From an uncultured Candidatus Rokubacteria bacterium (lineage in GTDB: Bacteria; Methylomirabilota; Methylomirabilia; Rokubacteriales; DASRDR01): DNA of 64,000 nucleotides. The translations under genes and the position numbers were made by a program. The first letter of the stretch is position 1. Every line of letters begins with the position of its first letter. Below are positions 17,797 through 27,621 of the stretch, piece by piece. A model generated the notes under the pieces. The model made no database searches. It saw only the letters and a list, made by a program, of their open reading frames with translations, and was not told the origin of the DNA. Location: assembly GCA_963805625.1 (NCBI GenBank), contig CAWDVE010000019.1, positions 576,001 through 640,000 of the forward strand, written 5' to 3'.

Positions 17797-18894
17797 ATGA
17801 AGGCTGTCGTGCTGCCCGCGGTCGGGGCGCCGCTCGTGGTCGAGGACATCCCCGTCCCCGAGCCCCGGACCGGCGAGGTCCTCATTCGCGCCCGCGCCTG
17901 CGGCGTGTGTCACACGGATCTTCACGTCGTCAAGGGCGAGGTGAAGTTTCCCGTCCCGGCGGTGCTCGGGCACGAGGTGTCGGGGACGGTGGAAGCGGCC
18001 GGGGCGGGGGTAGCTGGGCTCGAGCGTGGCGCCCGGGTGGTCGCCTCCTTCATCATGCCGTGCAACCGCTGTCGCTTCTGTGCCGTCGGTCGCGACGACC
18101 TCTGCGAGACCTTCTTCGCGCTGAACCGCCTCAAGGGCGTCCTCTACGACGGCGAGAGCCGCCTCCGCCGCGCGGACGGCACCGTCCTGGCCATGTACAG
18201 CATGGGCGGCCTAGCCGAGTACTGCGTCGTGCCCGCCACCGACGTCTTCCGGGTCCCGGACGCGCTTCCGCTGGAGGAGGCCTGCATCCTCGGGTGCGCG
18301 ATCATGACCGCGTACGGCGCGGTGAAGCACCAGGCAGCGCTCCGGGCGTCCGAGACGGTGGCGGTCGTCGGCGCCGGGGGAGTGGGGTCGAACGTGATCC
18401 AGCTGGCGCGGCTGTTCGGCGCGCTGCGGGTCATCGCTGTCGACGTCCGGGCAGAGAAGCTCGACGCGGCCCGTCAGCTTGGGGCGACGGACGGTGTCGA
18501 CGCGAGCGCCGGGGATGCCGTCGCCGAGGTGCGGCGGCTCACCGGCGGCGAGGGCGTCGACGTCGCCTTCGAGGCGCTGGGGCGGCCCGAGACGGTGACG
18601 GCCGCCTTCAAGATGGCGCGGGACGGCGGTCGCGTCGTGGTGATCGGCATCGCGGCCGGTGCCACGCCGGCGCCCATCGAGATCACGCACCTCGTGCGCC
18701 GGGGGATCCGGCTCCAGGGATCCTACGGCGCGCGCGTGCGGGGCGACATGCCGGAGATCGTGAGCCTGGCGGCCGCCGGGCGGATCAGCGTGACTCAGCC
18801 CATCTCCCGTCGCTACCGCCTCGACCAGGCGGACGAGGCCTACCGGGCGCTCGATCGCGGGCAGATCACGGGGCGCGCGATCGTGGTGATGTAG
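17797..18894 (+). CDS. Zn-dependent alcohol dehydrogenase (MDR, class III-like)
   Basis: 'CGVCHTD', 'GHE', 'CNRCRFC...C' structural Zn site, 'GAGGVG'; GGGAGG RBS. Confidence 0.93.
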   Translation: MKAVVLPAVGAPLVVEDIPVPEPRTGEVLIRARACGVCHTDLHVVKGEVKFPVPAVLGHEVSGTVEAAGAGVAGLERGARVVASFIMPCNRCRFCAVGRDDLCETFFALNRLKGVLYDGESRLRRADGTVLAMYSMGGLAEYCVVPATDVFRVPDALPLEEACILGCAIMTAYGAVKHQAALRASETVAVVGAGGVGSNVIQLARLFGALRVIAVDVRAEKLDAARQLGATDGVDASAGDAVAEVRRLTGGEGVDVAFEALGRPETVTAAFKMARDGGRVVVIGIAAGATPAPIEITHLVRRGIRLQGSYGARVRGDMPEIVSLAAAGRISVTQPISRRYRLDQADEAYRALDRGQITGRAIVVM

Positions 18895-18915
18895 TCTGGC
18901 TGGCAGGAGGCGGCG

Positions 18916-20763
18916 ATGACCGGATACGGGGGACGGACGCTTCACGTGGATCTCACCAGCGGGCGGAGCGAGGTGCGCCCGCTCGACGAGCGGACGGCGC
19001 GAGCCTTCCTCGGCGGGAACGGGCTGGCCGCGCGCCTCCTGTGGGAGGCGGCCGTGCCGGGAACCGACGCCTTCGATCCCGGCAACCCCGTTGCCCTCGC
19101 AGTGGGCCCGATCACGGACACGCTCGTTCCCGGCAACAGCCGCGCGTGTGTCGCCACCAAGTCGCCCCAGACGGGCCTGTTCTTCGACTCGACGTTCGGC
19201 GGCCGGTTCCCGGCCACGCTCAAGCGCACCGGCTTCGACGCTGTCGTGGTGACCGGGCGCGCCGAGCATCCGGTCTACCTCGCGGTGGACGAGGAGGGGG
19301 CGACTGTCCGGGACGCGCGGGGTGTGTGGGGAAAGACGACGCGTGACACGGTGGAGGCGATCCAGGCCGCCGACGGCGCCGAGACTGACGTGCTGGCCAT
19401 CGGCCCGGCCGGGGAGCATCGCGTTCGCTTCGCATGCCTCGCCCACTACTGGAAGAACCGCGAGGGCGTCGCCGGCCGCGGGGGCATCGGCGCCGTCTGG
19501 GGGGCGAAGCATCTGAAGGCCGTCACCGTCCGGGGGAGCCGGAAGACCGCTGTCGCCGACCCCGGGCGGCTCAAGCGGCTGGTGGACGAGACGCGCGAGC
19601 CCATGAAGAAGGGCACCGCCAACCTCTCGACGTACGGCACGCCGTTCCTCACCGGGCCCATCAACGCCATCGGCGCGCTCGGCGCCTACAACCTCAAGCA
19701 GGAGATCTACGCCGAGTGGGAGGCGATCGACGGGCGCTCGCTCAAGGAGCACTATCACGACCGGGACACGACCTGCCTCAAGTGCCCGGTCGCGTGCGGC
19801 AAGCAGTTCGCCGTCCCGGCCGACGTCCCGGTCTACGGCGGCGTCCGGGGGAAGATGCCCGAGTACGAGACCCTCTTCGCCTTCGGCTCGATGCTCGGCA
19901 ACGCGAACGCCCCCAGCATCGTCCACGCGAACATCCTGTGCGATCTTCTCGGGCTCGACTCGATCTCCATGGGCGTGACGCTTGCCTTCGTGGCCGAGTG
20001 CCTCGAGAAGGGGCTCCTGGCGCCGGACGACGTCGGCGGATCGTTCGGATGGGCGGACCACGCGGGAATGATCCGCCTGCTCGAGCAGACCGCGCGCCGC
20101 GAAGGATTCGGTGACCGTCTGGCCGAGGGCTCCTGGCGGCTGGCCCGGGAGATCGGGCGCGGGGCCGAGCGCCTGCCCTACGCGGTCAAGGGGCTCGAGC
20201 TACCCGCCCACTCGGCGCGCGCGCTGAAGGGCATGTCGATCGGGTACGCCACGGCGACTCGGGGCGGGAGCCACCACGACACCCGCCCCACGCCCCAGTA
20301 CGCGCAGGGGTTCGACCGCCGCTCGACGGGGGACAAGCCCGCCTTCGCGGCGAAGAGCCAGCACTTCACCGCGGTGGACGACAGCCTCGTCATGTGCCGG
20401 TTCACGTCGGAGCGCGGCTTCGGGCTCTTCCTGAACGAGGCCTACGCGGGGCTCCTCTCTGCGGTGACCGGCTGGACGGTGGACGTCGCGGAGCTCGAGC
20501 GGATCGGCGAGCGCATCGTCAACCTCGAGCGGCTGTTCGGCGTCCGGGAGGGGGTCCGCCGGAAGGACGACGTCCTACCGTGGAAGGTGATGCACGAGCC
20601 GATCCCGGACGGCCCGTCGGCGGGCATGCACTGCCCGCCCGAGGAGCTCAGCGAGATGCTCGACGCCTACTACGCGCTACGCGGCTGGGATGCCGACGGC
20701 GTGCCCACGCGGGAGCGCCTCACCGACCTCGGTCTCGACGCCGTGCCGGGTGTCCTCGGCTAG
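18916..20763 (+). CDS. Aldehyde:ferredoxin oxidoreductase family (tungstopterin) enzyme
   Basis: 'KSPQTG', 'IGPAGE', 'AGRGG.GAV.GAK.LKA', 'CLKCPVAC', 'PEYET', 'CD.LGLDSIS', 'YYALRGWD..G.P'. Confidence 0.93.
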   Translation: MTGYGGRTLHVDLTSGRSEVRPLDERTARAFLGGNGLAARLLWEAAVPGTDAFDPGNPVALAVGPITDTLVPGNSRACVATKSPQTGLFFDSTFGGRFPATLKRTGFDAVVVTGRAEHPVYLAVDEEGATVRDARGVWGKTTRDTVEAIQAADGAETDVLAIGPAGEHRVRFACLAHYWKNREGVAGRGGIGAVWGAKHLKAVTVRGSRKTAVADPGRLKRLVDETREPMKKGTANLSTYGTPFLTGPINAIGALGAYNLKQEIYAEWEAIDGRSLKEHYHDRDTTCLKCPVACGKQFAVPADVPVYGGVRGKMPEYETLFAFGSMLGNANAPSIVHANILCDLLGLDSISMGVTLAFVAECLEKGLLAPDDVGGSFGWADHAGMIRLLEQTARREGFGDRLAEGSWRLAREIGRGAERLPYAVKGLELPAHSARALKGMSIGYATATRGGSHHDTRPTPQYAQGFDRRSTGDKPAFAAKSQHFTAVDDSLVMCRFTSERGFGLFLNEAYAGLLSAVTGWTVDVAELERIGERIVNLERLFGVREGVRRKDDVLPWKVMHEPIPDGPSAGMHCPPEELSEMLDAYYALRGWDADGVPTRERLTDLGLDAVPGVLG

Positions 20764-20823
20764 GACACTCCGACCGCGCGGCGCGGGCGGTGCGGGCGTC
20801 GCCTCTCGCGAGTCGAATCGGCC

Positions 20824-21213
20824 CTAGCAGCGGTTCGCGTCGTCGATGACGAGGGTGACCAGACCGGTCGCCGGCTCGTACCGGTAGTCGTTCCCCTCGC
20901 ACTGGAAGGACGGCGGCGGGTTCAGGAGCGTCGCCACGACGTCCTTGCTGGGGGGGTACGTGCCATGCTGGCCGAAGTACAGCGTAAGCGACGTCCGGAT
21001 CGAGGCCACGGTCGCGCGGTCGGCGGCGAGCCGCGCCGCGGACATGGGCTTCTGCTGCTGGATGGTCTCGACGGTCTTCGTCGTCGAGACGAAGTACTGG
21101 TAGAGGAACGCCCCGGCGACGGCGAGGATCACGGCCACGACGAGGATCTCCACCAGCCCGAAGCCGGACTGGCCGCGCCTGGCCCGAGACGTGAGAGCGC
21201 CGCCCCGATGCAC
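20824..21213 (-). CDS. Type IV pilin / pseudopilin-like protein
   Basis: Class III signal 'GQSG|FGLVEILVVAVILA'. A TTGACA-N18-CAAGAT promoter at 21249-21220 suggests the start is GTG 21213. Confidence 0.75.
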   Translation of the reverse strand: MHRGGALTSRARRGQSGFGLVEILVVAVILAVAGAFLYQYFVSTTKTVETIQQQKPMSAARLAADRATVASIRTSLTLYFGQHGTYPPSKDVVATLLNPPPSFQCEGNDYRYEPATGLVTLVIDDANRC

Positions 21214-21318
21214 GCCGCCATCTTGAGTCGGCGCGTCCAGACGTGTCAAGAAAAGCGGGCCCGGCCTAGCAGTTCCTCCCCGGGGAGGGTCCGCTAGGCC
21301 GGAAACCGGCCGCGGCGG

Positions 21319-21747
21319 TCACTCCCCGACGATCTGGACCTGGAGCCTCCGGTCACGCGGCCCGTCGAGCTCGGCCAGGATGACGCGCTGGTACTGGCCG
21401 AGCAGGACCTCCCCGTCGGCCATGGCCAGCGCGATCGGACGTCCGAGCAGCGTCGCCCGCAGGTGCGCATGGGCGTTGGCGCGGTCGCAGTCCGAGTAGC
21501 GCGGATCGTCGTGACGATATCCGTCCCGTCGCGGGACCAGCTTCTGCAGCACGGCGCCGAGGTCGTCGAGGAGGGCCGACTGGAACTCGTTGATGAAGAC
21601 GGCGATCGTCGTGTGGAGCGAGTTGATCAGGAGCGTGCCGTTCTGGATGCCCGATCGGCTCACGGCGTCGCGGACCTGCTTCGTGACGTCGAGGAACTGC
21701 TGATTCTCTTCCGTCCGGATCTCGATCGTGTCCCGGAACACCTTCAT
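21319..21747 (-). CDS. yjbQ: YjbQ/UPF0047 family (secondary thiamine-phosphate synthase) protein
   Basis: 'HTT....INE', 'YRHD', 'NAHAHLRA', 'LGQYQ....ELDGPR.R'; AGGGAGG RBS. Confidence 0.9.
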   Translation of the reverse strand: MKVFRDTIEIRTEENQQFLDVTKQVRDAVSRSGIQNGTLLINSLHTTIAVFINEFQSALLDDLGAVLQKLVPRRDGYRHDDPRYSDCDRANAHAHLRATLLGRPIALAMADGEVLLGQYQRVILAELDGPRDRRLQVQIVGE

Positions 21748-21858
21748 CTGCCGCCTCCCTTGCCTACGTTCGAATGACACGCACGTGCGGCCCTGCCGCA
21801 TCCGTGCGCGTCGACGCCCGGTCTCGTGGAGCCCGGGCTCCGCCAGCTGCGGTGGAGC

Positions 21859-22155
21859 TCAGGCTGCGGGCGGTGCCCGCGGCAGCCGGCGAGGGAGGGG
21901 GGCCGGATCAGGCGGAGTCGCCCGGGAGCCGAGCTCCTCGAGGACCGCGCTCGAGTGACAGCCCGCGTCGAGCGGGATCGCGAGCGAAACGACGGCATCG
22001 AGCGCGGTGGTGGCCTGGGAAGGACCGGCGAGAGTGACTCCTGCGGTCGGCGCAGGCGCGAAGGCAAGGACCTGATCCAGTCCGAGGTGCTGGACGACGA
22101 GGAGAATGATGACGATGCGGCTCGCCCGGGTCAGCCCCCATCCCCTGAGCTGCAT
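21859..22155 (-). CDS. Putative leader/arrest peptide with an N-terminal hydrophobic segment and a C-terminal RAPP motif
   Basis: MQLRGWGLTRASRIVIILLVVQHLGL...PLPRRLPRAPPAA*; TATCCT 7 nt before ATG 22155 (alternative ATG 22161); lies 111 nt upstream of yjbQ. Confidence 0.6.
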   Translation of the reverse strand: MQLRGWGLTRASRIVIILLVVQHLGLDQVLAFAPAPTAGVTLAGPSQATTALDAVVSLAIPLDAGCHSSAVLEELGSRATPPDPAPLPRRLPRAPPAA

Positions 22156-22235
22156 GCTCATCAGGATACCGGAGGTGCGCTATACTGCTCGCGTCCAGGA
22201 CGTCACGATCGGGAGCCGCCAACCCGGAGGGTCCC

Positions 22236-22556
22236 ATGCCGCTCTACATCATGCTGTCCTCGCTGTCCGAGACGGGCCGACAGGTGCTCCGCAAGCTGCC
22301 CGGCTCCATCCGCAAGGTCAACGCGGAGGTCGGCCGGATGGGGGCGCGGGTCATCGCCCAGTACGCCGTCCTGGGGCCCTACGACTTCGTCACGGTGCTG
22401 GAGGCTCCGGACAACGAGACCGTCTCCCGGATCTCGGTCGAGCTTGGCGCCCGGGGTTCCGTTCAGATGATGACGATGCCGGCCATCCCGGTGGACGACT
22501 TCATCAGCCGTCTGGCCAGCCCATCTCGCCGGGGCGGCGCCCGCCGGCGCCGCTGA
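22236..22556 (+). CDS. GYD domain protein
   Basis: 'MPLYIMLS.L...G', 'QYAVLGPYDFVTVLEAPD'; GGAGG RBS. Confidence 0.88.
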   Translation: MPLYIMLSSLSETGRQVLRKLPGSIRKVNAEVGRMGARVIAQYAVLGPYDFVTVLEAPDNETVSRISVELGARGSVQMMTMPAIPVDDFISRLASPSRRGGARRRR

Positions 22557-22700
22557 GATCACCCGGCCGCCGGCGCGGCCGACTGCCCTGCGTCTGACCG
22601 AGTGGGCACGCGTCGGACCGCCGTGACGAGCTGGGCTGGTCCCCGCAATTCCGGGAAGCGAAGCGTGGCCCTCGAGGGCCGGACCGAACGCGACTGACCC

Positions 22701-24026
22701 GTGCTCCTGCTTCCCGAGCGCTGCTACGCGGCGGGGGCTGTCCACGACGGCTGGGCCGTCCGTCTCGAGGACGGTCGGATCACTGCCTTGGGGCCGCGGG
22801 CGGCGCTCCCGCCGTACCCGGCCGTCGAGGCCAACGCGCCGGAGGCGGTCTGCCCCCTCCCCGGGCGGCTTCTCCTCCCCGGTGGCGTCAACGCCCACAA
22901 CCATTCATTCCAGTCGCTCCTCCGCGGGCTCGGCGACGATCTCGACTTCATGGGGTGGCGCGACCGCGTTCTCTATCCCTTCTCGCGGCGGCTGGACGCC
23001 CGGGGAATCGAGATCGGGGCGGCCTTCGCCTTCGCCGAGATGCTGCGCCACGGCATCACGACGGTCGTGGACTTCTTCTACGTCCAGGGCGGCGGCAACG
23101 CGAACGCGGAGGCAGCCATCCGGGCGGCGAAGCAGGTCGGGATCCGCCTCGTCCTGGCCCGCGCCTTCTACGACTGGTCCGGGGCGCCGCCGGAGTATCG
23201 CGAGACGGTACCGGAGGCGACCGCGCGCTGCCGGGAGCTGATGGCCCGGTACGCCGGCGATCCGACGGTGAGCGTCCAGCCGGCGCCCCACAGCCTTCAC
23301 GCGGCCTCGCCCGAGATGATCCGCGCCGCGGCGGCGCTCGCGGACGAGGTTCGCGTGCCGTTCCACATCCACGTCGCCGAGTACCGCGCCGAGCGCGAGC
23401 AGATCGAGGCCCGCCACGGAGTCACCCCGGTGCGATACCTCGACCAGCTCGGCGTCCTGGGTCCGCGGCTCATCGGCGTCCATTGCGTGTGGGTCGACGG
23501 CGGCGAGGTGGAGCTCCTGGCCGAGCGGGGCGCCCGTGTCGCCTACTGCCCGTCCTCGAACATGATCCTGGGTGACGGGGTGACCAGGCTGCGGGAGATG
23601 CGCGCCATCGGTGTCCCCGTGGCGCTCGGCACGGATGGCGGCTGCACGAACAACCGGCTGTCCATCTTCGAGGAGATGCGGATGGCCGCTCTTCTCCAGA
23701 AGGTCACGCACCTCGACGGGACCGCCTTCAGCGCCGAGGAGGCATTCTGGCTCGGGACGGCCGGTGGCGGCGAGGTGCTCGGCCTTCCCGTCGGCGAGAT
23801 CGCGCCGGGCCGCTTCGGGGACCTGGTCGCGCTCGATCTCGAGCATCCGTCGCTCCACCCGCCGAACGCGATCATGAAGAACGTCGTCTACGCGCTCTCG
23901 CCCCAGGCGATCACGGACGTGTGGGTGCACGGCCGTCCGGTCGTGCGGCAGGGGCGCATCGCGACCCTCGACGAGGCGGAGCTCCTCGGGGAAGTGCGGG
24001 CCCTCACGCGCGACTGGCGCGTCTGA
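22701..24026 (+). CDS. Amidohydrolase (MTA/SAH or guanine-type deaminase family)
   Basis: 'PG.VNAHNH', 'HIHVAE', 'GVHCV', 'YCPSSN', 'GTDG' metal ligands. Confidence 0.9.
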   Translation: MLLLPERCYAAGAVHDGWAVRLEDGRITALGPRAALPPYPAVEANAPEAVCPLPGRLLLPGGVNAHNHSFQSLLRGLGDDLDFMGWRDRVLYPFSRRLDARGIEIGAAFAFAEMLRHGITTVVDFFYVQGGGNANAEAAIRAAKQVGIRLVLARAFYDWSGAPPEYRETVPEATARCRELMARYAGDPTVSVQPAPHSLHAASPEMIRAAAALADEVRVPFHIHVAEYRAEREQIEARHGVTPVRYLDQLGVLGPRLIGVHCVWVDGGEVELLAERGARVAYCPSSNMILGDGVTRLREMRAIGVPVALGTDGGCTNNRLSIFEEMRMAALLQKVTHLDGTAFSAEEAFWLGTAGGGEVLGLPVGEIAPGRFGDLVALDLEHPSLHPPNAIMKNVVYALSPQAITDVWVHGRPVVRQGRIATLDEAELLGEVRALTRDWRV

Positions 24027-24091
24027 CCGCGGCCGTCAACCACCTCGGCCCGTGCGTCACGGCACGGTGACGGCCGTGCTATAAGAGCGCG

Positions 24092-25084
24092 ATGCGATTC
24101 GGGTTCATTCCCACCGAGGGCGGGCACCTCGCGCGCGAGGCGCTGGCGGAGGTCGACCGCGCGGAGACGTTCGGCCTCGACTCCGTCTGGATGGAGGAGC
24201 ACCATGGCGTTCGCGGCCACTACTGGCCGTCGCCGCTCGTGGTGCTCGCAGGCTTCGCCACCCGGACGTCGCGGCTGCTCCTCGGCACCGACGTGGTGGT
24301 CCTGCCGTTCTACGATCCGGTTCGTGCGGCCGAGGATGCGGCGATGGTCGACGTGCTCTCGGAGGGCCGGCTCGTGTTCGGCGCCGCGATCGGGTACCGG
24401 CCGGACGAGTTCGCCCTCTATCGCACGCCGCTCGAGAAGCGGGGGGCGCGGTTCGAGGAGGCCCTCGCCGTGATCCGGGCGCTCTGGACGCAGGAGACGG
24501 TCACGCTTCCGGGGCCCCACTATCCGCTCGAGGACGCGCGTATCGAGCCGAAGCCCGTTCAGCGGCCGCACCCTCCGATCTGGATCGGCGGCTGGGGCGA
24601 GCTGATGATCCGGCGGGCGGCGCGCCTGGCCGACGCGTGGATTCCCGGCCCGACGGCGCACCTCCAGAAGCTGCTCGACGGCAAGGCGCGCTATCAGGCC
24701 GAGCTGCGGGCGGCGGGTCGGCCGGACCCGGCCGAGTGGCCGCTCACGCGCGACACCGTGATCGCCGACACCGACGCGGAGGCGCTCGAGCTCGCCGAGC
24801 GCCATCTCCTGGTGAACTACCGCGACGAGTACGGCGGCGGCCGCTGGAAGCACCCGCTCATCGGCGCAGAGGATGCCACGCCGGTGGACCAGCTCGACGC
24901 GCTCGGGCGCGACCGCTTCGTGATCGGCGGGCCCGAGCGGTGCAGGGCGCAGGTGCGGCGCTTCATCCAGGCGTTTGGCGCGACCCACATCATCTTCCGG
25001 CTGTACTTTCCCGGGATGCCGCACCGCCATATCCTCCGGGAGCTGGAGCTCCTGGCCCGCGAGGTCGCGCCCGCCTTTCGCTGA
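24092..25084 (+). CDS. LLM-class flavin-dependent oxidoreductase
   Basis: 'WMEEHHG', 'PSP', 'PFYDPVRAAED', 'PKPVQRPHPPIWIGG'. Confidence 0.9.
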   Translation: MRFGFIPTEGGHLAREALAEVDRAETFGLDSVWMEEHHGVRGHYWPSPLVVLAGFATRTSRLLLGTDVVVLPFYDPVRAAEDAAMVDVLSEGRLVFGAAIGYRPDEFALYRTPLEKRGARFEEALAVIRALWTQETVTLPGPHYPLEDARIEPKPVQRPHPPIWIGGWGELMIRRAARLADAWIPGPTAHLQKLLDGKARYQAELRAAGRPDPAEWPLTRDTVIADTDAEALELAERHLLVNYRDEYGGGRWKHPLIGAEDATPVDQLDALGRDRFVIGGPERCRAQVRRFIQAFGATHIIFRLYFPGMPHRHILRELELLAREVAPAFR

Positions 25085-25143
25085 CCCGCCGCCCGGGCCC
25101 GCGTGGCGAAAGGGCCCGCGCGGCCAGGCGTACAATACCGGAG

Positions 25144-27621
25144 ATGCGCAGGAACGCGCTCTTCTGGGGCATCCTCGGGCTCGCACTCGCCGTCGGTGTC
25201 GTCACCACTCTCGATCGGTACCAGCGCCAGGGCCGGACCTTCGCCGGCTTCTGGGTGATGGAGAACCTGCTCGTCGCGATCGGCGGACCCGAGCGTGGGC
25301 CGCTCGAGCCGTTCGACGTCGTCCGGGTCATGAACGGGCAAGTGCTCAAGAGCGGCCGGGACATCCAGACGACGATCGAGAGCCAGGATCCGCAAACGAC
25401 ATTCCACTACATCGTCTACCGGCGCGGCCAGCTGGTCGAGGTAGACGTCAAGACTCGCCTCTTCGCGCGTCGAGACTTTCTGCGGTTCGTGGCCGAGTCC
25501 CTCCTGTCAGGCTTGTTCCAGCTTGCGGTGGGTGCGGTCGTGTTCCTGATCCGCCCGGGGCGGTCACAGAGCTGGCTGTTTCTCACCTTTGCACTGATTG
25601 CGTATCTAGTCAGCGTCACCTTTGCCGACGCGCACACGACGTACCGCTTCTCCGGGTTGTTCCTGACTGCCTGGGCCTTCTGGCCGGCGACGCTGCTTCA
25701 CCTCGCCCTGACGTTCCCGCAGCGCCGCCGGATCCTCCGGCGCTTTCCGCGGGCGGTCTGGCTGCCCTACTTGATCTCGGCGGCCATCGCCGCGCTCCTT
25801 CAGCTGCCGGGGGTCTACCAGCAGCTGCCGGGGGTCTACCAGCTGCCGGGACTCCAGGGTGACGTCCGGCTCCTCCTCGCCGTGCCCGCCACCGGAGCCG
25901 CGTACTGGGGAGTGGCGCTGATCCTGCTGGTCCTTTCGCTCGCCCGGGCCAGCGTGGTGGGCGGTACCCCCTTGATCCGGCAGCGGGCACGGATCCTGTG
26001 CGCGGCGTTCGTTCTCGGCTACATCCCGCCGATCCTCGGGACGGCGACCGAGGCTCTCTTCCAGGTGACGGTCCCCTATCTGAATGCGATGTGGAGGCTG
26101 ACGCTCCTCTTTCCCATCGTCATGGCCTACGCCATGGTTCGCTACGACCTGTTCGACGTACGCGCTGCGCTCCGCGCCGGCGCCGTCTACTCGGCGGCCA
26201 CCGGAGTCGTGGTGCTCGCCTACACGGGCGCCATTGCCGGCACGGACATCCTCCTGGCCAACTGGGAGGCCGCGCAGTCGCCCGTCGTCGCCGCCGCCGT
26301 CATGGCGGTGCTGGTCGTGGTGCTGCTGAACCCGCTCTACCTCCGATCGCAGCGGCTGGTCGACCGTCTGTTCTTCCGACAGCGGGTGGACGTCCAGCGG
26401 TCGATCGAGCACGTTTCGGAGGTCATGAGCGGGCTTCTCGACCTCCGGCGGATCGTCGAGCTGCTCACCCAGACCGTCGAAGAGCAGCTGCACCCCTTGC
26501 GGCAGGAGTTGTATCTCCTCGACGCGGGCCGCCAAGGCTACGTGCGCGCGGAGCAGGAGGAGGCGGACGAGCAGGACGGCCGGCCCCCGATCGACGGCGG
26601 CTCGCCGCTGGTGCGGTGTCTCGAGCTGCGCCGCCAGCCGCTGACGCGGGAGCGGGTCGAGGAGGATCCCGCGCTGGAGGACTACCAGGCGGGGTGTCTC
26701 ACGGCGATGGACGGCCTCGGGGCGACCCTGGCCGTGCCGTTCCTCTTCCAGGGTCGCGTGACGGGCTTCCTCGCCCTGGGTTCGAAGCGGTCTGGCCTCG
26801 GTTACTCGAGCCAGGACCTCGGACTCCTCCGGCTCCTGGCGAATTCGAGCGCCCTGGCCCTCGAGCACGCGCAGGCGTACGCGGCCCTCCAGGACACGAA
26901 CGCGGAGCTGCGAGCGGCGATCCGGCGTGTGGAGATCCTCGAAAGCATCCGGACGAACCTCGCCAAGTTCGTTCCCCGCACCGTGCAGGACCTGATCGAG
27001 CGCGCGCCGGAGGCCCCGGAGCTGGACAAGCGCGAGGTGGACGTGACCGTGCTGTTCGTCGACCTGGTGGGCTACACGCGGCTCACCGAGCGGCTCGACC
27101 CCACCCGCGTCAACGAGCTGGTCGAGCGGTGCTTCGGCGCTTACCTCGACGAGATCCTCCGGCGAGGCGGGGACGTGAACGAGACGGCTGGCGACGGCCT
27201 CATGGCCATCTTCCACGATGCGGATTCGCGGCGCCACGCCCGCCAGGCGGTGAGGTGCGCGCTCGGGATCCTGCGCCGGACACGTGAGCTGAACGAGACG
27301 CTGCACGGGCTGCCCGAGCCGCTCGCCGTCCATATCGGCGTGAACTCCGGCCTCGCCACCGTGGGCGCCACCAAGATCGAGGGCGCGAACGGCACGCGAT
27401 GGACGTACACCGCCTCAGGGCAGGTCACCATCGTGGCGGCTCGTCTCGCCGCCCTCGCCCGGAGGGACGAGATCCTGGTGGGGGCCGGAACCAGGGAGCG
27501 GCTGGGCGACGAGTTCTCGTTCGAGACCCTCGGCGAGCGGCCCTTGCGGAACGTCGAGATGCCGGTGAAGGTGTTCCGGCTGATGCTGGCCCAGCCCGTT
27601 CCCGCGACGGCCACGGCCTGA
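25144..27621 (+). CDS. Membrane-bound class III nucleotide cyclase (PDZ-like periplasmic domain, multi-TM, GAF, coiled coil, cyclase)
   Basis: 'LFVDLVGYT', 'AGDGLMAIF', 'HIGVNSG', 'AARL', 'LRNV..PV.VF'; 'YAMVRYDLFD' ends the TM block. Confidence 0.88.
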   Translation: MRRNALFWGILGLALAVGVVTTLDRYQRQGRTFAGFWVMENLLVAIGGPERGPLEPFDVVRVMNGQVLKSGRDIQTTIESQDPQTTFHYIVYRRGQLVEVDVKTRLFARRDFLRFVAESLLSGLFQLAVGAVVFLIRPGRSQSWLFLTFALIAYLVSVTFADAHTTYRFSGLFLTAWAFWPATLLHLALTFPQRRRILRRFPRAVWLPYLISAAIAALLQLPGVYQQLPGVYQLPGLQGDVRLLLAVPATGAAYWGVALILLVLSLARASVVGGTPLIRQRARILCAAFVLGYIPPILGTATEALFQVTVPYLNAMWRLTLLFPIVMAYAMVRYDLFDVRAALRAGAVYSAATGVVVLAYTGAIAGTDILLANWEAAQSPVVAAAVMAVLVVVLLNPLYLRSQRLVDRLFFRQRVDVQRSIEHVSEVMSGLLDLRRIVELLTQTVEEQLHPLRQELYLLDAGRQGYVRAEQEEADEQDGRPPIDGGSPLVRCLELRRQPLTRERVEEDPALEDYQAGCLTAMDGLGATLAVPFLFQGRVTGFLALGSKRSGLGYSSQDLGLLRLLANSSALALEHAQAYAALQDTNAELRAAIRRVEILESIRTNLAKFVPRTVQDLIERAPEAPELDKREVDVTVLFVDLVGYTRLTERLDPTRVNELVERCFGAYLDEILRRGGDVNETAGDGLMAIFHDADSRRHARQAVRCALGILRRTRELNETLHGLPEPLAVHIGVNSGLATVGATKIEGANGTRWTYTASGQVTIVAARLAALARRDEILVGAGTRERLGDEFSFETLGERPLRNVEMPVKVFRLMLAQPVPATATA
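25801..25842 (+). repeat. Perfect in-frame 21-bp tandem duplication
   Basis: CAGCTGCCGGGGGTCTACCAG x2 (QLPGVYQ x2), followed by a partial CTGCCGGG. Confidence 0.9.

Follow-up and report, generated by a model that had tools for sequence, protein, structure and literature searches.

RAPP and RGPP motifs readily arrest the ribosome, and upstream open reading frames (uORFs) that carry them precede diverse genes, as described by Fujiwara et al. 2025 (PMC12992588). In brief, SecM, ApdA and ApdP combine an export signal with an RAGP or RAPP arrest motif, and in SecM a stem-loop masks the downstream Shine-Dalgarno (SD) sequence (PMC7897499, PMC10987492). In the accounts considered here, ApcA, ApdA and ApdP have no predicted SD hairpin. 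The DUF2946 leaders CruR and CutF are described as exported uORFs with a Pro-rich arrest end, a C>G bubble and a fixed distance from a motif to RAPP, and CutF uses an SD stem-loop (PMC9426467; bioRxiv 2025.02.05.636593).

Here we describe a putative leader of this kind upstream of yjbQ in an uncultured Candidatus Rokubacteria bacterium. Its nearest relatives with a name belong to Rokubacteria/Methylomirabilota. The window is the whole stretch of 64,000 nucleotides that was analysed, and its features are on the minus strand unless a plus sign is given. The yjbQ gene (21319..21747) encodes a 142 aa protein of the UPF0047/TIGR00149 family (PF01894, E 9.9e-32; TIGR00149 above cut-off) with no evident signal peptide. 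The sequence-only reading of the window had placed an ORF of about 98 aa upstream of it on the same strand, and this ORF is real. It runs from 22155 to 21859, encodes 98 aa and ends with a TGA at 21861-21859, 111 nt upstream of the yjbQ ATG at 21747. It is the second ATG, at 22155, that is conserved as the start; relatives have GTG in place of the ATG at 22161 or lack it. The product has a basic N-region, a hydrophobic run of eight residues in a short helix interrupted by a conserved Gln, a free linker and the end PLPRRLP-RAPP-AA-stop. Both this C-terminus and the RIVIILLVV N-terminus had been read correctly. The RAPP codons lie at 21868..21879, and the predicted P-site codon, assigned by analogy with PMC12992588, is CCG at 21873-21871.

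Like the uORFs of Fujiwara et al. 2025 (PMC12992588), the leader is shorter than 300 aa, hypothetical and hydrophobic at the N-terminus, with a C-terminal RAPP and a downstream gene on the same strand. A predicted leaderless start and the anti-SD position described below are not discussed in the available part of that paper. With SecM, ApdA and ApdP (PMC7897499, PMC10987492) the leader shares a putative export signal and the arrest motif, but its target is neither sec nor yidC, only two sister loci have tatA after yjbQ, and its anti-SD lies behind the ribosome footprint. With CruR and CutF it has in common the plan of a putatively exported uORF, the Pro-rich end and the C>G bubble. Unlike these, it has no DUF2946 (PF11162) match, no CxxC or CxxxC and no conserved Cys or His, and its target is not a metal gene. 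The lack of CxxC had been pointed out before. The single CH reported alongside it is present in the window leader but kept in just 3 of 12 same-genus leaders, and metal sensing through this unconserved CH was rejected.

Our literature search found no paper joining yjbQ or Rokubacteria with an arrest peptide, in line with the earlier statement that no yjbQ target had been described for such a leader. The main text and readable supplements of PMC12992588 gave no mention of yjbQ, UPF0047 or Rokubacteria; this is limited evidence because the source list covers enriched groups only and the supplements were searched in part. One row of the Fig. 4B source list, PYM39766.1, is a Rokubacterial leader of the Asp-loop type treated below. 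The novelty of the target is smaller than was assumed when secretion and metal genes were taken as the usual targets, since RAPP uORFs upstream of diverse genes are published (PMC12992588). The device itself is known; yjbQ as its target and the loop-less form of the leader were not found in our search.

A six-frame search of the GC-rich source genome yields 945 cases of RAPP or RGPP within eight codons of a stop, and the window leader ranks second among them for upstream hydrophobicity. The same-genus set comprised 15 genomes including the source genome, 12 of them with a close full-length yjbQ. In all 12 loci an intact ATG...R[AG]PP-xx-stop leader is present, its frame is open and the other frames contain stops. 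Leader lengths are 288, 294 or 303 nt, with indels in multiples of three that preserve the frame, and the spacers to yjbQ differ freely in length (104-119 nt, and 20 nt in one locus). Pairwise dN/dS of the leader was 0.46 in columns 1-36, 0.76 and 1.05 in the linker and 0.36 in the last 18, compared with 0.13 for yjbQ. In all 18 aligned leaders the R, P and P of RxPP are unchanged, with two residues between the motif and the stop; at the N-terminus M1, Q2, R13 and V20 are invariant and Q22 nearly so. Genome G006 (68% complete) has no yjbQ match, G004 has distant paralogs alone, and in G001 a single deletion took the leader end and most of yjbQ. At the G001 locus (L114:1780-1960) the promoter is kept, the leader start is frameshifted and the last 33 yjbQ codons are all that remains. 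The protein P0030, distinct from this deletion case, is an in-frame leader-yjbQ fusion.

AlphaFold predicts a helix at residues 10-32 and a linker with pLDDT <50 (overall pLDDT 58.6, pTM 0.27). No Pfam or NCBIfam family was found for the leader, with 0 Pfam families at E<=1, and 30 of the 30 nearest ESM Atlas clusters were without a common Pfam family; we take the DUF6769/SecM_small rows at 0.90-0.91 as leads and no more. The arrest-leader reading fits because conserved ends, a free middle and a fixed length are the pattern expected of such a peptide. The 98-codon ORF is a conserved gene and likely a cis-acting arrest leader, for which stalling is a prediction. Arrest at RAPP seems to us highly probable, in our judgement rather than by computation.

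A leader that is untranslated, and conserved for its promoter and RNA structure, would explain the missing SD before the ATG and the overlap with a divergent promoter region. We find this barely credible against a frame open in 12/12 loci with stops in the others, indels in threes and dN/dS <0.5 at both ends; furthermore, sister genera have different leaders of the same architecture at the same position. RNA runs, eight of them as contigs, showed small shares only. In an RNA library, one 364-nt contig from a relative, which does not give start, strand or level, spans the leader and part of the spacer.

The leader is tied to one clade of yjbQ. In a tree of 42 yjbQ rows, hand-picked from fetched loci, a clade of 30 (support 97/95) has an R[AGS]PP leader in 27 rows, compared with 0/12 rows outside it; the clade rows are kin, and there was therefore probably one leader gain, not 27. 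Outside this clade, in a large sister family, yjbQ has a TTGACA/TATCGT promoter about 85 nt upstream and no leader. An RxPP leader was present at 13 of the 15 nearest metagenome loci and absent from one; the remaining locus was too short for the test. The position upstream of a same-strand gene is conserved in the same-genus loci, the metagenome loci, the tree and the genome survey. With the 12/12 same-genus loci, these observations uphold the proposal of a conserved RAPP-type leader linked to yjbQ. The loop-less leader type occurs once per genome, in this genus alone, and always with yjbQ downstream (12/251 genomes). It could still be an independent small envelope peptide whose RAPP times its own targeting, with yjbQ merely co-transcribed, and none of the covariation tests is decisive. 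We regard this as very improbable, as the section that would form the mature peptide shows no conservation and is predicted to be disordered, and the loop-less type is found only once per genome and only upstream of yjbQ.

In four of six sister genera the yjbQ leader is dissimilar in sequence and has the same plan, in some cases with an Asp-rich loop. A variant in L112, L232, L233 and L236 reads LPDDxxxxGYYDGDGDDAVVAPERLA...RSPP, with a spacer of 190-210 nt; the SD of L112 pairs with the PP codons and those that follow. The GYYDGDGDD-loop subclade is nested among the loop-less yjbQ-leader rows, and hence there was either repeated loss of the loop or an exchange of leaders.

The Asp-loop leaders form a wider family with the consensus SPPDPxWxxGxYDDxDxDDVV, about 95-100 aa long, with a hydrophobic N-terminus and R[AGS]PP-xx-stop. 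We did not find Asp-rich Rokubacterial RAPP leaders as a named family in print. Profiles were needed, as the L015 leader used alone as a query for homologs gave a single match. When 32 candidates per genome were scored, a 14-row profile had matches in 80 of the order's 151 genomes, with at least 13 matches in the richest genome. The profile matches comprise 572 clusters at 50% identity. R[AGS]PP was present in 147 of 150 family proteins examined and in 106 of 109 fetched loci, shares that are biased upward because the search profile itself included RAPP. The Asp loop was found in 128 of the 150 proteins, and 80 of the 109 loci end two residues past the motif. The spacing from W to R is 59-61 in 121 of 124 Asp-loop relatives, which matches the fixed motif-to-RAPP ruler of CruR and CutF (PMC9426467; bioRxiv 2025.02.05.636593). 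A -10 box stands ahead of the ATG in 38 of 90 loci. Downstream genes, from 59 of 108 heuristically called genes run against Pfam, include TatA, efflux components, DUF1344, glycosyltransferases, asparagine-synthase and DegT enzymes, epimerases and regulators. A cytoplasmic target such as YjbQ is not unusual, since the family heads many cytoplasmic enzymes and regulators.

The source genome encodes a second RAPP leader with a partly decayed Asp loop (G000:C13:179986-180276, minus strand, corresponding to L111:5987-6280). It lies 121 nt upstream of a gene for a secreted DUF1344 protein, and its pairing recurs in several same-genus genomes. Locus L207 (G069:C57:18500-32500) has four Asp-loop RAPP leaders in 14 kb, ahead of two asparagine-synthase-type genes, tatA and a glycosyltransferase gene. 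Across the family loci (L111-L224) the first Pro of RxPP is encoded by CCT in 31/103 cases, compared with 68/1129 Pro codons of downstream genes, and the codon before it often ends in T; these figures do not separate anti-SD from slow-codon selection.

In contrast to the Asp-rich leaders, the window leader has no loop and a shorter, Gln-broken hydrophobic segment (median run of 8 residues in loop-less leaders and 14 in Asp-loop leaders), and its SD blocker is 5' of the stall, whereas theirs is in or after it. The loop (DPxWxxGxYDxxDxDD) is missing from the window lineage and decayed in several others; a motif-only profile gave at most 0.3 bits in the window lineage versus 49 in L015. Two sister genera, at L015:1019-2162 (+) and L017:1234-2366 (-), have leader-yjbQ-tatA units. 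In these genomes, G020 and G018, tatA is immediately 3' of yjbQ and the loops are the best kept among yjbQ leaders (49 and 16 bits). Leader-tatA units are present elsewhere in the order. These two loci suggest that the coupling first arose on account of tatA. Homology of the window leader to the Asp-loop family is weak in sequence, at about 10 bits and an hhalign probability of 3.8% over the tail only; the two share the position before an orthologous yjbQ and the plan of length and tail. From position and architecture we infer that the loop-less leader descends from the Asp-loop family.

A putative -10 box, TATCCT (TATACT in relatives), lies at 22163..22168, 7 nt before the leader ATG, and a TAnnnT box is found 6-7 nt upstream of the ATG in 12/12 same-genus loci. 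As the box is this close and no well-spaced SD precedes the ATG, the sequence suggests a leaderless mRNA with a predicted start near 22155. A mirror box at 22181-22186 (+) would serve the divergent gene for a GYD-domain protein (22236-22556, +). The two -10 boxes stand back to back in 22163-22186 and both are kept in 12/12 loci. A promoter of its own for yjbQ within 21748-21858, which would have spoken against control by the leader, was not found there: the promoter scan gave 0 and the spacer has no TAnnnT hexamer. One relative with just 20 nt between leader and yjbQ disfavours a separate spacer promoter further. Downstream of yjbQ, a hairpin with a short T run is seen at 21251..21300, an uncertain feature that the terminator scan did not call, and TTGACA follows at 21249-21244. 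Together they suggest, with some uncertainty, that the transcription unit ends after yjbQ. In 14 related loci a gene for a prepilin-type N-methyl protein (PF07963; 20824-21249 in the window) is located 3' of yjbQ. This gene may have its own promoter, to judge from the TTGACA and from the GTG at 21213, a possible leaderless start.

Within the leader, the Pro-Leu-Pro codons contain a candidate anti-SD, CCUCCCU (21892..21898), 19-25 nt 5' of the P-site codon, and the yjbQ SD is AGGGAGG (21754..21760). The sequence-only reading had paired CCUCCCUCGCC (21898-21888) with GGCAAGGGAGG (21764-21754). The pairing at 10 of 11 positions stands and RNAalifold recovers it, with the SD paired in the consensus; as a match in one genome it could have arisen by chance, since 468 of 2000 codon shuffles produced an exact complement of at least 8 nt, and its support lies in conservation. 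RNAalifold was run on 18 loci, with G003 excluded for its deletion. In the CCUCCCU:AGGGAGG helix 92.9% of cells were paired and 3 of 7 pairs showed a two-sided change, each in one sequence, a modest covariation that is sensitive to alignment register and comes from close kin. Nested inside is a hairpin with the RAPP and stop codons (21856..21887, RNAalifold columns 30-61), where 93-98% of cells were paired, mostly by invariant coding bases. The value for the whole structure was reached by 4 of 500 shuffles, a result that relatedness can yield. Other tests were weaker: recoding with synonymous codons reached p<0.05 at 5 of 19 loci, and swapping partners revealed little specificity. On the full 456-nt transcript the helix had p=0.19, with other C-rich leader stretches competing.

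The other RNA elements proposed earlier fared less well. CUGCCGC and GCGGCAG do pair at 7 of 7 positions, but this second helix is not conserved and has a predicted probability of 0.00. It was rejected, as it crosses the first helix in pseudoknot order, shares base 21754 with it, and GCGGCAG varies. The spacer hairpin (21776..21812) folds, but is variable and deleted in G003, which argues against an essential role. No riboswitch or other known RNA was found, with 0 Rfam matches at E<=5 across 18000-26000.

The ribosome footprint limits used for modelling are approximate, apart from the +15-17 toeprint edge. In a local model of 19 yjbQ loci, the mean SD opening energy was 11.1 kcal/mol for the free RNA and 10.7 with -15..+17 masked, followed by 5.7 (-26..+17 masked), 3.8 (two ribosomes) and 4.1 (-48..-16 only). 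The claim that a ribosome stalled at RAPP frees the yjbQ ribosome-binding site is thus not supported for one footprint. A single mask leaves the SD closed because the anti-SD is at -19..-25 from the P-site codon. The matching values for 74 other family loci were 7.5, 6.3, 5.8, 5.8 and 7.4, a contrast by which the window lineage differs in blocker position. In 34 of these 74 loci the SD pairs mainly within the footprint, and a family-wide swap control of this property was not significant (529 of 5000 permutations as good). Release by a single ribosome may nevertheless occur, since the ribosome bulk would be 3-4 bases from the helix and is ignored by the model. On the 456-nt transcript the SD opened only when the entire leader was masked (10.5 to 3.1).

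That the leader controls yjbQ by some route we consider probable, again as a judgement and not a calculation. A SecM-like cis leader with predicted stalling and regulation is the most likely reading, which we hold with slightly more belief than doubt. In brief, translation would initiate at the first bases of the transcript, at the leaderless start 22155, and the ribosome would arrest at RAPP in a Pro96/Pro97-type P/A-site geometry (third and fourth RAPP residues). When Sec engages the weak signal segment, the pull of export would release the arrest. Persistent arrest would uncover the yjbQ ribosome-binding site, and yjbQ would be translated. Because the first ribosome would have the anti-SD directly at its rear, we invoke steric clash or a queued second ribosome to open the SD. 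The ancestor would be the Asp-loop leader of a yjbQ-tatA unit, from which tatA was lost and a loop-less export monitor retained. A stricter version is a threshold switch that counts collisions, leaderless, sensor-less and derived from the Asp-loop yjbQ-tatA leader, in which the blocker behind the stall lets yjbQ be translated only with a second ribosome queued; this we think quite improbable.

The finding that one ribosome leaves the SD closed in models also favours a CruR-like attenuation. Here the stalled ribosome would shield a C-rich rut, release would let Rho terminate before yjbQ, and the anti-SD would be secondary. CruR is described as using such control (PMC9426467). The genome has a rho gene, and the leader is richer in C (38-50%) than in G (26-35%) throughout, with the bias reversed in the spacer. 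However, Pro, Ala and Leu codons yield C richness regardless, and rut sites lack structure whereas folding is predicted for the leader 3' end. One relative, moreover, has a 20-nt spacer. We rate attenuation as unlikely, though a live rival. The opening of the SD under a whole-leader mask would likewise suit a vestigial sensor that senses nothing after the loss of tatA and the loop, and is retained as a constitutive coupler since only translation of the leader would unlock the yjbQ start. The missing loop in the window lineage, its decay in several others and the near neutral evolution of the linker agree with this. Simple coupling needs neither a fixed ORF length nor the constraint on the N-terminus (purifying selection at 0.46 in the first 36 columns; invariant M1, Q2, R13 and V20), and for this reason we find it rather doubtful.

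No functional link between cytoplasmic YjbQ and export is known, which counts against an export monitor, and we found no primary YjbQ function in the literature. The nine PDB relatives of the product are all hypothetical or uncharacterised, and a 2026 preprint calls its function unclear. Thiamine-phosphate synthase activity of YjbQ is described as secondary (PMC3020362) and the source genome has two ThiE-family matches; a thiamine role was not adopted on these grounds. In the sister family yjbQ is often 5' of a winged-helix regulator and an epimerase, neighbours that give a slight hint at an envelope role.

The impact is moderate, as the principle is known and the organisms are represented by genome assemblies only. 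If the collision-counting switch were true, YjbQ would be implicated in an export or envelope stress response. With this leader YjbQ, a cytoplasmic protein, would join the genes' products that RAPP leaders control, which offers a hint on its role that can be tested. It also provides a natural series on one target, in which the Asp loop is intact and accompanied by tatA, decayed, variant or missing. This series addresses a question raised in PMC12992588, namely what releases RAPP arrest outside Sec/YidC feedback.
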